64,000 bases of DNA from an uncultured Pseudomonadota bacterium (GCA_963770835.1 CAVYRH010000004.1:544001-608000); one strand, 5' to 3'. Counted from the stretch's first letter, positions 25,644 through 37,784 are shown. Made by a program: numbers and translations. Notes: generated by a model not told the origin, from the letters alone.

Positions 25644-26324
25644 ATGGACGAAATCACAGCGGAACAATTATTAGAAAATACCAAAACCTGGAAACCCGAG
25701 GGGGATTTTGAGGCCCGGGTGGATAAACAATTGCGCGCGGCCCAGGCGCCGGAAGGGCTGGTCGGAGATTTGAGCCGGGCCTTTCACCGGTGTTCCGAAA
25801 GCACCTATGGTTACATCCAGTACATCCACGAACTGGCCACCACCAAGGAAATCGACCGGAAAAATTTCCTGCCCCAAGTGGCCCGGCTGGTAGGCTTGGT
25901 GCAGGAGCTCCAAGCCAGCGGGGAGGATTACCGAAAAACATTTCAAAAATACGACGACGTTATGCGGGCCGGCCTTACCCAGGACCATTTCGACACCATT
26001 TATTACGACGCCATCCAGAATATCGACATCCGGGTATTGTTGAAAAAGATCATTGAGGAGGTGGAGGTTGTTCTCCAGTCCTTCTCCATGGTCAGCGGGG
26101 ACCTATCGGGCATCCGGTGCGTCGATCTCTACGAAAGCAGCATCCGGTTCCAACTTTTCCTCCAGTATTTTTTGAACAAAGGGAAGTTTACCCCGGAAGA
26201 ACTGTGGTCCATCCTCTTTGACGTCTTCGACCAGATGGGAGAAATGGAAAACTTCTCCGTGGAGCCGACCGAGGAAGAACTGCGGGAGCTTCACGAAAAA
26301 ATACAGAAATACAAATCCAACTGA
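25644..26324 (+). CDS. Hypothetical acidic alpha-helical protein
   Basis: 226-aa ORF directly after PHP gene; no recognised motif. Confidence 0.6.
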   Translation: MDEITAEQLLENTKTWKPEGDFEARVDKQLRAAQAPEGLVGDLSRAFHRCSESTYGYIQYIHELATTKEIDRKNFLPQVARLVGLVQELQASGEDYRKTFQKYDDVMRAGLTQDHFDTIYYDAIQNIDIRVLLKKIIEEVEVVLQSFSMVSGDLSGIRCVDLYESSIRFQLFLQYFLNKGKFTPEELWSILFDVFDQMGEMENFSVEPTEEELRELHEKIQKYKSN

Positions 26325-26589
26325 AACCCGCGAAAATTTGCCATTCCCTTGAGGTGCACCCTTACGATCCGTTAACCTGCAATAACCAAACTTTCATTAG
26401 GATTTCTTCCAAAAAAGACAGCTAACAATTTATGGAACCGCTTTTTCCTAACGAGGTTTTAGGAGTTACCCGTTTAACTTCGCCAACTCAAATTGATATT
26501 CTCAATTTATTGCGAATATAATAAGCCCCTCACTACGAGTAGTTGTTTTTGACTTTTAAAATAATTTATTTAAGGAAGATCTTCCGGCA

Positions 26590-27630
26590 ATGGCCACACT
26601 CGAATCGGTCTATAAAAGGGCACATACCTCCAAAGTCTCCGTTTTCTTTTTCCTGATCCTCCTCATGCTCTCGGTGACGGCGGGAGAATTGGTTTGGACC
26701 CTTCGCCACAACCTTAGGGAGTCCCTCGTGGTCGGCGGCGTAGCCCTCTTCTTCTTCTGTATTTGGTGGTTTTTCTTCCAATGGCAAAGCAAAGTGACCT
26801 GGCTCTGCCGCCTTCAAATGATTTTCCTGGGTGCGGGCACCCTTCCGAACGATTACCGGCTTTCGGATGACGCCATGCCCTGGGACGTCGCGGAACGCAC
26901 CGATGCGGTGGTCCAAATGGCATCCCAAATGGTTCAAAAAACCCAAAGGGACCTCCAGGCCAACCGGAAAGCCTTGGACAAATATGTCGGGTCCCAGGCC
27001 TCCACACAGATATTGAAGCGGCCGACCACCGGGCTATTGGGCGGGGATATCGAAATGTTGTTCGTCCTTTTCTCAAAAATTCTGGGGTTCAACCAAATGA
27101 CCTCGAAACTGGCCCCGTCGGAAACGGTGGACACCCTAAACAGCCTTTATTCCGCCATGGCCGCCGCCGTGGAAACTCAAGGTGGCGAAATCAACAAATT
27201 CATCGGTGATTCGGTCATGGCCTATTTCAAGCGGCCGGATGGGGACCCATCCCAGGCAGCGGAAAGGGCCGTCGAGGCCGCGATGGACATGCAGAAAAAT
27301 TTCAACTTCCTGACCTCCGAAAACGAGGTCCTGAAGGCCCGGGGCCTGGAACTCGGGTTGGGAGTCGGCATTGTGTCAGGGCATGCCATCCTGGGCAACT
27401 TGGGCTGGCGCCAGCGCATGGAGTTCACCCTGATCGGCGACTCGGTCAACCTTTCCGCCCGCATTTGCGCCATTGCCCCCGCGGGGGAAATCCTGGTGAA
27501 CGAGGAGCTGGCCCAGATGGTCGGCGGTGGGTTCCGGACCGAAACCCGCCCTCCGGTCCAACTCAAGGGAAAAAGTGAAAAGGTCACCACTTATTGCATT
27601 TTGGGTCGAATGGAAACAACCCATGTTTAA
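26590..27630 (+). CDS. Membrane-anchored class III adenylate cyclase subunit lacking the first metal-binding Asp (C2-like)
   Basis: 2 TM; LFSKILGF, KFIGDSVM, EFTLIGDSVNLSAR, LKGK. Confidence 0.85.
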   Translation: MATLESVYKRAHTSKVSVFFFLILLMLSVTAGELVWTLRHNLRESLVVGGVALFFFCIWWFFFQWQSKVTWLCRLQMIFLGAGTLPNDYRLSDDAMPWDVAERTDAVVQMASQMVQKTQRDLQANRKALDKYVGSQASTQILKRPTTGLLGGDIEMLFVLFSKILGFNQMTSKLAPSETVDTLNSLYSAMAAAVETQGGEINKFIGDSVMAYFKRPDGDPSQAAERAVEAAMDMQKNFNFLTSENEVLKARGLELGLGVGIVSGHAILGNLGWRQRMEFTLIGDSVNLSARICAIAPAGEILVNEELAQMVGGGFRTETRPPVQLKGKSEKVTTYCILGRMETTHV

Positions 27631-27660
27631 ATCGATTCCGGGTTTTTAAAGGAGTAATTT

Positions 27661-28758
27661 ATGGCAACCCTTTCCTCGGTGAAGCACAGGGCCGAAACAG
27701 TGATGGTCCCCCTCTTTTTCTTTTTTTTGCTTCTCCTGCTATCCATCGTTGTTGGCCAACTCACATGGCTTTTCACCCAAAACTTACAGCTTTCCATCCT
27801 GTCGGGATCGGCGGCGGCGGTGATTTTTTACGTGTGGTGGTTCCTTTATCAATGGCAAACCAACGTGACCTGGTTATGCCGCATCCAGATGATATTTTTC
27901 GGGGCCGGGGCGTTGTCCGCGAATCACGCTTTTATCGACGATGCCCTGCCTTGGACTGTGAAAAAGCGCACGGAGGAAGCCATCAAAACGGCGGAGGAAA
28001 TCATAAAAGGAGCCAGCAAGAACTTGGTCGAAAACCGCCACGTGCTGGATAAATACCTGGGATCCCATGCCTCACAGCAGACGCGCCGGAATCCTTTCGA
28101 AGTCGGGGGGGAAAACCAGGAACAAGAGGTTATTATCCTGTTTTCGGACATCCGGGGGTTTACCGCCATGACCGAAAAACTGACCTCCAAGGAAACGATG
28201 CGGGTGCTCAACCAAATTTATTCCCTCTTGGGTTCCACCCTGGCCAGCTATGGGGGCGAGATCAATAAATTCATCGGGGACGCCATCCTCGCCCACTTTA
28301 AACGGTCGGGAACCAACCCGCGCGCGGAGGCTGAAAAAGTGGTCCAAGCCGCGTTGGAAATGCAGGAAAAGTTCGCCGCCTCGGTCCGCAAGAACAACGA
28401 TTTGAATATCCGCATGGTCAAAATTGGATTAGGAATTGGGATCGCCTCGGGGAAGGCCATCATGGCCAACCTGGGCTCGGAGAACCGGATGGAATTCTCC
28501 GTGATCGGGGACACGGTCAACACCGCGTCCCTTCTTTGCGGCCTGGCGCACGAGGGTGAGGTGCTGATCAATGAGGATCTGGCGCTCCTGGTCACGGACA
28601 AATACCACATGGAATCCCGCATGCCGGTGCAATTAAAAGACAACAAGGAAAGCACCACGCCCTATTGCGTTTTCGGCTCGATGGAAAACCGCGCGAGCAT
28701 CAAACAACCGCCCGCCAATCAAGATAATTTCTTTTCCCTTGAACAGGATAAAAATTAG
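27661..28758 (+). CDS. Membrane-anchored class III adenylate cyclase subunit lacking the transition-state Arg (C1-like)
   Basis: 2 TM; LFSDIRGF, KFIGDAIL, EFSVIGDTVNTASL. Confidence 0.85.
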   Translation: MATLSSVKHRAETVMVPLFFFFLLLLLSIVVGQLTWLFTQNLQLSILSGSAAAVIFYVWWFLYQWQTNVTWLCRIQMIFFGAGALSANHAFIDDALPWTVKKRTEEAIKTAEEIIKGASKNLVENRHVLDKYLGSHASQQTRRNPFEVGGENQEQEVIILFSDIRGFTAMTEKLTSKETMRVLNQIYSLLGSTLASYGGEINKFIGDAILAHFKRSGTNPRAEAEKVVQAALEMQEKFAASVRKNNDLNIRMVKIGLGIGIASGKAIMANLGSENRMEFSVIGDTVNTASLLCGLAHEGEVLINEDLALLVTDKYHMESRMPVQLKDNKESTTPYCVFGSMENRASIKQPPANQDNFFSLEQDKN

Positions 28759-28859: not shown

Positions 28860-29792
28860 TCAAACCGGTATCGTTAGACCCTCGTAAGCGCAAATGGAGT
28901 TCGTGAAAAGTTTCTTGGCGGCTTCTTCCTTCTTGGCGACGGCCGCGTCGTCATGGTTAGGGTCATGGTGGTAAAGCACCAACTGCTTGACCCCGGCTTC
29001 CTTGGCCACAAAACAAGCCATCTCAGGTGTTGAGTGCCCGAAACCCTGGGTGGGGACGGGCCCCGTATACTGTTCCACGGTGTATTGGGCGTCGTGGATT
29101 AAGACATCCGCGCCCCGCGCAAATTGAATCAGCCTTTTGTCCCCCTCTTGGTAACCCTCGATATCCGTCGCGTAAACAATGGATTTTCCGGCATATTGAA
29201 GCTTGTAAACCAGGGTCCCGTTTTTGGGGTGGTTGTAGGCCCGGTACTGGCTCACGATGACCTTGTCCTTGAATGTGGCCTTGAAATCCGTCTGCAAGTT
29301 GACCAGTTCAGCCTCACCCCCCTCGGCCAGGAGAACTTGGTCGAATTGCTTAAGGGTCGAGATCTTTTTCAGGGAGTGGGTTTCCTTCAGGTCGATGGGA
29401 AAGAACATTTGGTCCATCATCATATCCAGCACGTAATCCAGGCCCGTCTTCGACCCGACGGGGCCGTAAACCGAGGGCCCGAAGATCGAAAGGGAGGTGT
29501 CGCCGATATAAAGGGGCGGGAAAAAGGGAAGGCCCATGACATGGTCGTGATGGGTGTGGGAAATAAGGATTGTCACGGCCAAGCGCTTCATCTTGTCGCG
29601 GTTGGCGAAGAAATTGCGCACCAATTGCTGGCCCGCGCCGATGATGCCGGTTCCGGCGTCCAGGAAGATGGTGTGGTCCAGGACGTTGACCTGGACGCAG
29701 GAGGAATTGCCCCCGATTTTGAGCGTGGAAGGTCCGGGAACCGGGATGCTTCCGCGCACCCCCCGGAACGTAATCGTGAAATCGTGAGCCAT
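28860..29792 (-). CDS. MBL-fold metallo-hydrolase (possible cyclic-nucleotide phosphodiesterase)
   Basis: GVRGSIPVPG, LDAGTG, HTHHDH, DAQYT, GHST, HHDP. Confidence 0.85.
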   Translation of the reverse strand: MAHDFTITFRGVRGSIPVPGPSTLKIGGNSSCVQVNVLDHTIFLDAGTGIIGAGQQLVRNFFANRDKMKRLAVTILISHTHHDHVMGLPFFPPLYIGDTSLSIFGPSVYGPVGSKTGLDYVLDMMMDQMFFPIDLKETHSLKKISTLKQFDQVLLAEGGEAELVNLQTDFKATFKDKVIVSQYRAYNHPKNGTLVYKLQYAGKSIVYATDIEGYQEGDKRLIQFARGADVLIHDAQYTVEQYTGPVPTQGFGHSTPEMACFVAKEAGVKQLVLYHHDPNHDDAAVAKKEEAAKKLFTNSICAYEGLTIPV

Positions 29793-35843: not shown

Positions 35844-37784
35844 GTGCGTCCAGAAAAGGCAGGTGTGTTCAGCAAGAGATAGTCTTGCATGGGTAATAGC
35901 CAAAGCCCATTAGCTAGGATGGCAGGCAAGCGGGAAACCAAATGCCTGAAGCCCATCAACAAAGCCATCGAAAGGATGGTGAGCGAGTCGTCGGGCCGTA
36001 ACGAAAGTAAATGCACAGGTGGCCCCGAAAACACTTGCCTCGGAGGCTGAGTCCGCCGTCGTGGGACGAAAGCATCATGGGACAGCGCGGAGAAATGGCT
36101 GAAGCGCTGGAACACTCCGACGGGGTGATAGCAACGGCACGAAGACAAGGACACGCCAAGCAACTGGAGAAACCCTCCTTGCCCCAGGCAGAAATGCTTG
36201 GAGAAAGGTAGGCCGTATAACCGTGACGCGGGAAAACGGTCGAAGGTGAGAGGGTTTAGGATGGGTTCATGGTAGCGATGAAGCGGGGTAATGCCCGTGG
36301 AGCGAAGGAACCCTGCTGTTGTTAAGTCCCTCGACAAAACGGAAGGCAGTGACGGTATGAAAAAGACGTCAATTAACCTGCAAGACCTGAGACGAGAGAT
36401 ATACGTCAAAGCGAAGGCTGAAAAGAACTGGAGTTTCTGGGGACTGTACACCCATGTTTGCAAGATGGAAACGCTTCAACAGGCTTACCGAATGGCTAAG
36501 GTAAATAACGGAGCCCCTGGAATAGATGGGGTGACGTTTGATGCCATTGAGGAGGCCGGAGTGGAGTCGTTTCTGGAAAGCATCCGGGGTGAATTAGTTC
36601 AAGGCACGTATAAGCCCGTTCGAAACCGGAAGAAGGAAATACCCAAGGGAAATGGGAAGGTAAGAGTCCTTGGGATACCCAACATTCGGGATAGAGTAGT
36701 CCAGGGAGCACTGAAGTTTATTCTGGAACCGATTTTTGAGGCCGATTTTCAAGAAGGGTCCTATGGGTATCGACCCAAGCGGACCGCTCATGCGGCTGTG
36801 AACAGGGTAGCATCGGCAATCGTCTGTAGAAAAACCCGAGTCATTGATGTAGACCTCAAGGCATATTTCGACACGGTAAGGCACGACCTTCTGATGAAGA
36901 AAGTTGCCCGAAGGGTTGAGGATGAAACGGTGTTGAGATTGTTGAGGATGATCCTGAAGGCCAGCGGCAAAAGAGGAGTCCCGCAGGGAGGGGTTATTTC
37001 CCCTCTTCTGGCTAATCTCTACCTCAACGAGGTGGATAAGATGCTGGAAAAGGCAAAAGAAGTGACTCGGCAAGGGAAGAACAACTATATCGAATATGCG
37101 AGGTTCGCTGACGATATGGTGATCCTTGTTAATGGATATCCGCAATGGGAATGGTTGGCAAAGGCTGCCTACCGAAGGTTACTTGAAGAATTGACCAAGC
37201 TCGACTTGCAAATCAACACGGACAAGACGCGGATAGCAGACTTAACGAAAGGTGAAAGTTTCGGGTTTCTGGGGTTTGACTTTCGACAGGTGAAAACCCG
37301 TCGAGGGAAATGGGGGGTGAAGTTCACGCCGAAAATGAAGGCGCGAGCAACACTTCTGGGTAAGCTCAAGGAAACATTTGGAAGCTTCCAATCTCAGCCG
37401 GTGCAGAGGGTGATTGAGATTATCAATCCCAAACTGCGTGGGTGGGTGAATTACTTTCGGATAGGGAATTCTAGGCGCTGTTTTAACTACGTGGAAAGAT
37501 GGGTCGAGAATAAAATCAGACGGCATATGATGCGTGCGAAGAAGCTCGACGGTTTTGGGCGGGATAGGTGGAGTAGGGAGTGGATATATAAGTATCTGGG
37601 GTTGTACAGAAGCTACCAAATACGATATTACCAAGAACCGAAAGCGCTACCCGTCTGATAGGTCACATAAACTTTGACAGGAAAGCAACAGGTGAGCGTA
37701 GTGCGGGAAATCCGCACGCTACGTTCGAGGAGGCGGGGACTGGAAACGGAGCCAGAAGGCCACCGCACCAGTCCTCGACCCTAC
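35844..37784 (+). mobile_element. Group II intron
   Basis: 5' GTGCG at 35844; domain V GAGCGTAGTGCGGGAAATCCGCACGCTACGTTC; domain VI ending CGACCCTAC at 37784; candidate EBS1 CGTCGT (36057-36062) complements exon ACGACG (35838-35843). Confidence 0.92.
36357..37658 (+). CDS. ltrA: Group II intron reverse transcriptase/maturase (no endonuclease domain)
   Basis: GAPGIDG, RVLGIP..RDRVVQ, GVPQGGVISPLLAN, RFADD, maturase 'LRGWVNYF'. Confidence 0.93.
   Translation: MKKTSINLQDLRREIYVKAKAEKNWSFWGLYTHVCKMETLQQAYRMAKVNNGAPGIDGVTFDAIEEAGVESFLESIRGELVQGTYKPVRNRKKEIPKGNGKVRVLGIPNIRDRVVQGALKFILEPIFEADFQEGSYGYRPKRTAHAAVNRVASAIVCRKTRVIDVDLKAYFDTVRHDLLMKKVARRVEDETVLRLLRMILKASGKRGVPQGGVISPLLANLYLNEVDKMLEKAKEVTRQGKNNYIEYARFADDMVILVNGYPQWEWLAKAAYRRLLEELTKLDLQINTDKTRIADLTKGESFGFLGFDFRQVKTRRGKWGVKFTPKMKARATLLGKLKETFGSFQSQPVQRVIEIINPKLRGWVNYFRIGNSRRCFNYVERWVENKIRRHMMRAKKLDGFGRDRWSREWIYKYLGLYRSYQIRYYQEPKALPV

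Follow-up and report, generated by a model that had tools for sequence, protein, structure and literature searches.

The two tandem class III cyclase genes at positions 26590-28758 of the window (the whole stretch of 64,000 nucleotides of DNA from an uncultured Pseudomonadota bacterium that was analysed) probably encode the two halves of a membrane-anchored heterodimer, which would have one complete and one degenerate active site, in the manner of soluble guanylate cyclase (sGC) with its alpha and beta chains. We assign to this reading a probability of about 0.7. The evidence was drawn from sequence alone, for a pair of narrow distribution, and it indicates that the reciprocal loss of catalytic residues between the two genes is a real, selected feature.

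Gene 1 (P0001; 26590..27630, + strand; 346 aa), for which we predict the role of the C2 or sGC beta subunit, and gene 2 (P0002; 27661..28758, + strand; 365 aa), the predicted equivalent of C1 or sGC alpha, are separated by a gap of 30 bp, and both encode two hydrophobic helices, a linker helix and a class III cyclase domain. The first-pass annotation, made without database searches, had described them as paralogous two-helix cyclases, and the coordinates of the reading frames, the matches to PF00211, the 46% identity of the two proteins from end to end (345 columns) and their hydrophobic segments all agree with that description. There are two such segments per protein, near residues 11-39 and 44-65, and in the single-chain models the loop between the helices is almost absent. 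The PF00211 domain spans residues 157-338 of gene 1 (27058..27603, + strand; E 9.6e-23) and residues 153-335 of gene 2 (28117..28665, + strand; E 5.7e-23), with scores of 81.2 and 81.9 bits, respectively, against the curated cut-off of 21.9; each protein contains one such domain and no other domain above the cut-off. The models (mean pLDDT 79.8 and 82.4) exhibit an identical order of secondary structures and confident predicted folds for both catalytic domains. That of gene 1 has the class III fold, matching CyaB, CyaC and Cya2 best (E ~1e-18), with a TM-score of 0.89, by target, to CyaB (3r5g).

An AAGGAG sequence resembling a ribosome-binding site, read from the sequence, is located inside the intergenic gap ahead of gene 2 (27649..27654, + strand), and a terminator scan found no terminator-like site between the genes, which we infer to be co-transcribed. 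A candidate sigma-70-like promoter match precedes gene 1 (26493..26522, + strand; 11/12 bases, 18-nt spacer), with the number of such sites in the region (2 found versus 1.6 expected) not above chance. The 226-aa gene upstream of the pair (25644-26324, + strand) has no Pfam or NCBIfam match. Convergent with gene 2 is a gene with the metallo-beta-lactamase fold (28860-29792, - strand), which weakly matches a model of cyclic-nucleotide phosphodiesterases; its assignment as a cAMP phosphodiesterase was considered and found to be unsupported (a score of 43.5 bits where the cut-off is 400, and absence beside the relatives of the pair). A 455-aa reading frame at 36291-37658 (+ strand) resembles, as judged by eye, the reverse transcriptase/maturase of group II introns. 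A conserved gene neighbourhood was likewise rejected: the flanks of single-copy relatives differ, and aconitase and P-type ATPase neighbours are common to only two loci (L009 and L062).

Table 1 of PMC6005667 lists eight active-site positions, of which metal 1, metal 3 and phosphate 4 are provided by one chain, and base 2, base 5, ribose 6, phosphate 7 and phosphate 8 by the other. Phosphate 4 of Cya2 is given there as Arg450, two residues past Asp448, and in the alignment with 2W01 it falls on R165. At these eight positions gene 1 reads K163, D207 and L165 together with K203, T280, N287, R291 and K326, and gene 2 reads D163, D207 and R165 together with K203, S280, N287, L291 and K326, the last followed by Asp in place of Gly. 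By motif, we take K326 to be the equivalent of Lys1065. The metal and phosphate side of gene 1 (27076..27093, + strand) has Lys for Asp at 163, Leu for Arg at 165 and Asn for Thr at 168, three positions that are 100% conserved in 88 other proteins of the family, and E172 is also gone; the adenine-specifying K203 and the second Asp, D207 (27196..27210, + strand), T280, N287 and R291 (27427..27462, + strand), and the K326-G327-K328 loop (27565..27573, + strand) are kept. Gene 2 keeps D163, R165 and T168 (28147..28164, + strand), D207 (28279-81) and N287, and is altered on the side of the base and the transition state, by G269A, R274E, T280S, L281V and R291L (28465..28533, + strand), and after the retained K326 by G327D and K328N (28636..28644, + strand), with D327 found in 4/4 orthologues.

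The first-pass annotation had read most of these sites correctly: the codons AAA for K163 (27076-27078), CTT for L291 (28531-28533) and GAC-AAC for the Asp-Asn of LKDN in place of LKGK (28639-28644) are as it stated, as are both Asp residues of gene 2 and the retained K, T, N, R and KG of gene 1. However, the remainder of gene 1 is less intact than it supposed, given the additional losses of R165, T168 and E172; the Ser for Thr at 280 of gene 2 had escaped mention, and the LKDN motif still contains the loop lysine. An adenine-specifying pair of Lys with Thr, Asp or Ser is present in both proteins (K203/T280 in gene 1 and K203/S280 in gene 2), and neither chain carries all of the catalytic residues, D163 and R165 being absent from gene 1 and R291 from gene 2. 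T280S is a conservative change, which leaves R291 as the sole canonical residue, out of eight, that gene 2 has lost outright. The reciprocal spread of metal-side versus base and transition-state residues leads to exactly one complete site in a mixed dimer. Thus the split of roles that the annotation envisaged is supported by losses that go deeper than it had noted.

The change of Asp to Lys requires two base changes from GAY, the codon found in 16/16 relatives examined. The AAA codon is covered by contigs from sequencing runs X1 and X3, with no other letter listed, and the CTT codon by contigs from X1, X2, X3 and X6 with 0 differences; these are four soil runs from two studies, of which X1 is possibly close to the sample of origin. 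Because of the two-base change and the recurrence of the codons in other runs, assembly error is ruled out. X1 and X3 each provide one contig across the junction of the two genes. When 12 active-site positions are considered in both genes, 6/6 changes fall within the 12 cells that form a single heterodimer site (P = 0.014, or P = 0.037 without the conservative T280S); the positions were taken from the published mechanism but fixed after the alignment had been seen, and the P values are indicative. The same asymmetry is visible regionally, in comparison with 33 subfamily proteins: among 37 conserved positions of residues 151-214 there are 11 losses in gene 1 and 3 in gene 2, and among 20 conserved positions of residues 268-296 there are 2 and 6, respectively (Fisher p = 0.026, for regions picked after the data had been seen). 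Of 34 family invariants, gene 1 keeps 29 and gene 2 keeps 30, as against 53-57% identity elsewhere (P ~1e-4 each), and no lost invariant position is common to the two genes.

The family with which the pair was compared comprises two-helix cyclases retrieved in searches with both proteins, and has 88 members of at least 290 aa, the pair and its orthologues excluded. The full set of D, D, K, T, N, R, K and G is present in 87/88 of them, the remaining protein being C-terminally truncated, and the 12 active-site positions are unaltered in 85/88, the exceptions being the truncated protein and two with Gly-to-Ser changes. A check for the reciprocal substitutions in orthologous pairs had been suggested at the outset, and they are retained: every orthologue found carries those of its gene (3/3 for gene 1, at 92-100% identity, including P0211 at 92% and P0212 at 99%; 4/4 for gene 2, at 82-100%, including P0122 at 88%, P0123 at 82% and P0213 at 100% after rounding), and they are absent from 88/88 other family proteins, the intact relatives of the pair being 55-60% identical to it. 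This sample is small and close, with two non-identical sequences for gene 1 and three for gene 2. P0211 and P0122 each come from contigs of 2824 bp, and P0212 and P0213 each from contigs of 102,274 bp, which suggests that the members of each couple share a contig. For P0123, encoded on a contig of 2527 bp, protein family searches and a short-fragment search found no gene 1 partner. Carriage of the two genes side by side is demonstrated in the genome of the window (G000) only.

Among 32 genomes of the order, matches with E <= 1e-80 occur in 15: twice in G000 and once in each of 14 of the 30 genomes of the same family. All of these single copies are intact, so that the degenerate pair is confined to one genome of the 32. 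No intact copy of the subfamily was found elsewhere in G000 (96% complete); from the wider two-helix family it has two paralogues, both intact (~36% identity), and its PF00211 matches number 14. In another genome (L075 2723-6730, on G019:C1) a distant two-helix paralogue is present as three tandem genes, all of them intact; therefore, tandem position alone does not yield such losses. When metagenomes were scanned with the alignment of gene 2, 498 pattern matches were obtained, of which 0 were confirmed; a scan with gene 1, covering 41/64 parts, gave 14 loci, none with the pair of the window; and short fragments of gene 1 gave 2 matches, neither orthologous. No RNA holder of the pair was seen among the matches listed. 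The best 150 matches of a profile search against 1.84 billion representatives include no additional degenerate protein of the family; among them, 109/115 single-domain proteins are canonical, 5 are truncated, and 1, a protein of 840 aa outside the family, has Gly for Arg.

Some observations were made alongside. Orthologues from the same genus (G001-G003) are 45-50% like the pair, compared to 53-56% for those of other genera (G014, G018, G024), a difference that may point to transfer or to hidden paralogy. At G000:C7:156160-156819 a cyclase domain is found in two reading frames, with motifs that match an intact copy on C8; it may be a duplicate with a frameshift, or else the result of misassembly. 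A further cyclase of this genome (G000:C19:78340-80163) has His for Asn and an altered phosphate loop, and is the sister of the intact C8 cyclase in the tree, without being adjacent to it.

In the phylogenetic tree of 49 rows both genes fall within a clade of nine rows that includes the intact P0003-P0005 (support 96/90), on stems of 0.75 (gene 1) and 0.44 (gene 2) changes per column. Leaving out eight trait columns, in a tree of 28 rows, gives stems of 0.80 and 0.49 and a lower clade support of 81/90; the end branches in the crowns of both genes are 0.12 or less. Gene 1 groups weakly with P0003-P0005 rather than with gene 2 in the best trees (92/84 and 87/81), and in a tree of the catalytic domain it is placed at the base of the subfamily, as long branches may fall. 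Sisterhood of gene 1 and gene 2 is not rejected (p-AU 0.21 in the 49-row tree and 0.13 in the 28-row tree with the trait columns left out). We regard tandem duplication followed by reciprocal loss as the simplest reading, in which the single intact gene of the family would have been duplicated, both copies would have passed through fast reciprocal loss into renewed constraint, and the pair would have taken the place of the single gene.

In the proposed heterodimer site A would combine D163, D207 and R165 of gene 2 with K203, T280, N287, R291 and K326 of gene 1; it would be complete, and, having a Lys/Thr pair, would use ATP as the substrate and yield cAMP as the product. Site B, built of K163, D207 and L165 of gene 1 and K203, S280, N287, L291 and K326 of gene 2, would be catalytically dead; it may still bind a nucleotide, with the residues of the adenine and ribose side remaining, and K163 of gene 1 may occupy the place of a metal ion. 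A homodimer of gene 1 would be devoid of one metal ligand and the phosphate Arg, and a homodimer of gene 2 would be devoid of the transition-state Arg. All orthologues retain the residues of site B contributed by gene 2 (K203, S280, N287 and K326) or, for gene 1, D207, and according to PMC6005667 an Asp at the place of D207 influences regulation in sGC (beta Asp477). On account of these kept residues and the role of Asp477, it is plausible, by analogy, that the degenerate site acts as a regulatory pocket. The weakest step in the argument is the word "obligate", since gene 2 outright misses only R291, and its homodimer might remain active at a low level. That gene 1 retains one Asp (D207) also speaks against this reading. 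Moreover, the ~36% identical paralogues and the other cyclases of G000 could be alternative partners, and complementarity is no proof of partner preference, because the interfaces of sGC catalytic domains are described as promiscuous (PMC3591389).

The chief rival is a facultative heterodimer, in which gene 2 would form a homodimer of weak activity, and gene 1, where present, would be a dead activator that lends it the Arg and the loop. This variant agrees with the retention of D163, R165, D207, K203, N287 and K326 in 4/4 orthologues of gene 2, with its stem being shorter than that of gene 1, and with P0123 standing on record without a partner, although the contig of P0123 measures merely 2527 bp. 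We consider it rather improbable, given that 88 family proteins show 100% conservation of the Arg missing from gene 2, that the R376A variant of Rv1625c is described as inactive (PMC4821796), and that G327D and G269A deepen the loss in gene 2. Still less probable is the notion of two pseudo-enzymes, each of which would independently regulate other cyclases via half-active dimers or sense nucleotides. Partners for this are at hand, as G000 encodes other cyclases besides the two intact paralogues noted above, and the interfaces of sGC are promiscuous (PMC3591389), but those paralogues are just ~36% identical, and neither the exactly reciprocal losses (P = 0.014) nor the adjacency of the genes nor the lack of an intact subfamily copy in G000 is what it predicts.

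The long stems of both copies and the presence in 1/32 genomes of the order might also be explained by neutral decay of redundant duplicates with a coincidental complementarity. This we regard as very unlikely in view of the intact frames, the normal GC3 of both genes (0.70-0.71), the retention of family invariants well above background (P ~1e-4), the fixation of the substitutions across 82-92% identical orthologues with short crown branches, and the confident predicted folds of both catalytic domains. Equally hard to credit is a retuned chemistry, with another metal, substrate or product and each homodimer active in its own way, since both proteins retain the base-specifying Lys/Thr(Ser) pair, for all that the fixed replacements (D to K, G to D) are radical and not conservative, and every homodimeric enzyme in Table 1 of PMC6005667 has both Asp residues and the Arg.

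A close functional parallel of the proposed split-site heterodimer is sGC (PDB 3UVJ, 4NI2), in which two genes encode homologous subunits that form a joint site and, as described in PMC3591389, a pseudo-symmetric cavity. According to Table 1 of PMC6005667, the beta subunit has, like gene 1, lost metal 1 and phosphate 4 and kept the second Asp (Asp477). Gene 2 is a milder version of C1 than sGC alpha, as it retains the Asn and the loop Lys that the latter lacks. The sequences are distant (the chains of the catalytic domain match with E 1.8e-7 to 5e-5), and, unlike sGC, the pair is bacterial, has two membrane helices per protein and no H-NOX or PAS domain, and contains the Lys/Thr adenine pair instead of the Glu/Cys guanine pair; it is therefore outside the soluble guanylate cyclase family. 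In the mammalian membrane enzymes, the C1 domain (as in AC5) supplies the pair of metal Asp residues and the C2 domain (as in AC2) the base and transition-state residues, with one active site and one pseudo-site (PMC4174876). However, these enzymes are single chains with 2 x 6 helices under the control of G proteins, in contrast to the two genes with two helices each described here, and C2 has lost both Asp residues (Table 1 of PMC6005667), compared to only the first in gene 1. Without the fused six-helix architecture, the pair is outside the mammalian membrane adenylyl cyclase family as well.

The closest solved relatives by sequence and fold are CyaB (3R5G), CyaC (1WC0), Cya2 (2W01) and bPAC/OaPAC, which have the same Lys/Thr type of base pair, but which carry a complete catalytic set on each chain and pair with themselves, as described in PMC9552081 and PMC4821796. 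A direct precedent for complementation between an Asp-less and an Arg-less bacterial chain is provided by the D300A and R376A variants of Rv1625c, each inactive alone and active when co-expressed (section 7 of PMC4821796, citing Guo 2001); they are laboratory-made, and concern the second Asp rather than the first. The fungal rhodopsin cyclase NeoR forms with RGC1/2 a two-gene obligate class III heterodimer (PMC8815786). These proteins are eukaryotic, and RGC1/2 are described there as having all catalytic residues, so that the obligation of NeoR does not arise from reciprocal loss. Eukaryotic heterodimers and Rv1625c are also covered in PMC9433096 and PMC11006738, and PMC2447327 may treat heterodimers among mycobacterial cyclases. 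The subject of PMC11066126 and PMC10888846 is how heteromers emerge once a gene has been duplicated. In the open-access literature we found no natural two-gene heterodimeric cyclase from bacteria. A C1/C2 split inside bacteria is also seen in two-domain cyclases of the sAC-like type, reportedly described by Kobayashi in 2004; cyclase-AAA-TPR proteins of this kind, with complementary patterns, are among our matches. Unlike our pair, they are fused and soluble.

Complementary losses in two adjacent genes are also found in spirochaetes, in an operon where a CheA-receiver gene is followed by two cyclase genes, of which the upstream one keeps D, D and K and has lost the Asn and the Arg, and the downstream one carries His in place of the first Asp, with its other catalytic residues retained. 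This pair is present in five genome and five metagenome loci, some of them duplicates (L020 2767-5828, with an MCP-like gene after the pair; L022 2374-5804; see also L021, L023, L025, L068-L070, L072, L073, L080-L082). Out of 81 genomes around G063, 6 matched: five with the His form next to another cyclase, which is partly truncated at the locus edge, and a sixth with an intact single gene. A common origin of the Asp-less and the Arg-less subunits of the spirochaetes and of the window was rejected in one-clade tests run with three trait columns left out (p-AU 1.7e-9 and 1.9e-59), which indicates that the spirochaete pair evolved independently, a recurrence that favours our reading of the window's pair.

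Fused counterparts can be found in the profile search mentioned above, where 35 of the best 150 matches have at least two cyclase domains in one chain, and 20/35 combine one Arg-less with one Asp-less domain (in one case with a gap at the Arg column). Twelve of the complementary chains are large, with 1300-2400 aa and domains 900 or more residues apart (P0234, P0239, P0250, P0268, P0274, P0279, P0286, P0301, P0318, P0329, P0330 and P0349); HAMP domains were detected in four of four of the large chains scanned, and 4/8 of those looked up are Riflebacteria or Ozemobacteraceae by name. These proteins exhibit, within bacteria, the layout of duplication plus fusion known from the mammalian membrane cyclases. 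One could go further and imagine the window's pair as a young natural obligate heterodimer encoded by two genes, just past the switch from the homodimer, with the dead pocket as an allosteric nucleotide site, and bacteria as having repeatedly moved from an intact gene through a split pair to a fused C1/C2 chain; on the sequences at hand we hold this extended scenario to be conceivable, yet doubtful.

Bacterial class III cyclases are described as homodimers in PMC9552081 and PMC4821796, in line with the general statement of the first-pass annotation, and the C1/C2 split is placed there in an early eukaryote, by duplication and fusion. If our interpretation is true, a natural two-gene heterodimer breaks this rule in bacteria, and the output of cAMP would depend on two subunits together, in a pair that likely works like sGC alpha/beta and the mammalian C1/C2 domains, being a member of neither family. 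Annotation of single chains would label both genes as broken or both as active. The pair is also a tractable case: because the proteins are small (346 and 365 aa), intact relatives are available at 55-60% identity, and the reciprocal changes are few, the order of the losses and the origin of the pseudo-site would be directly testable.
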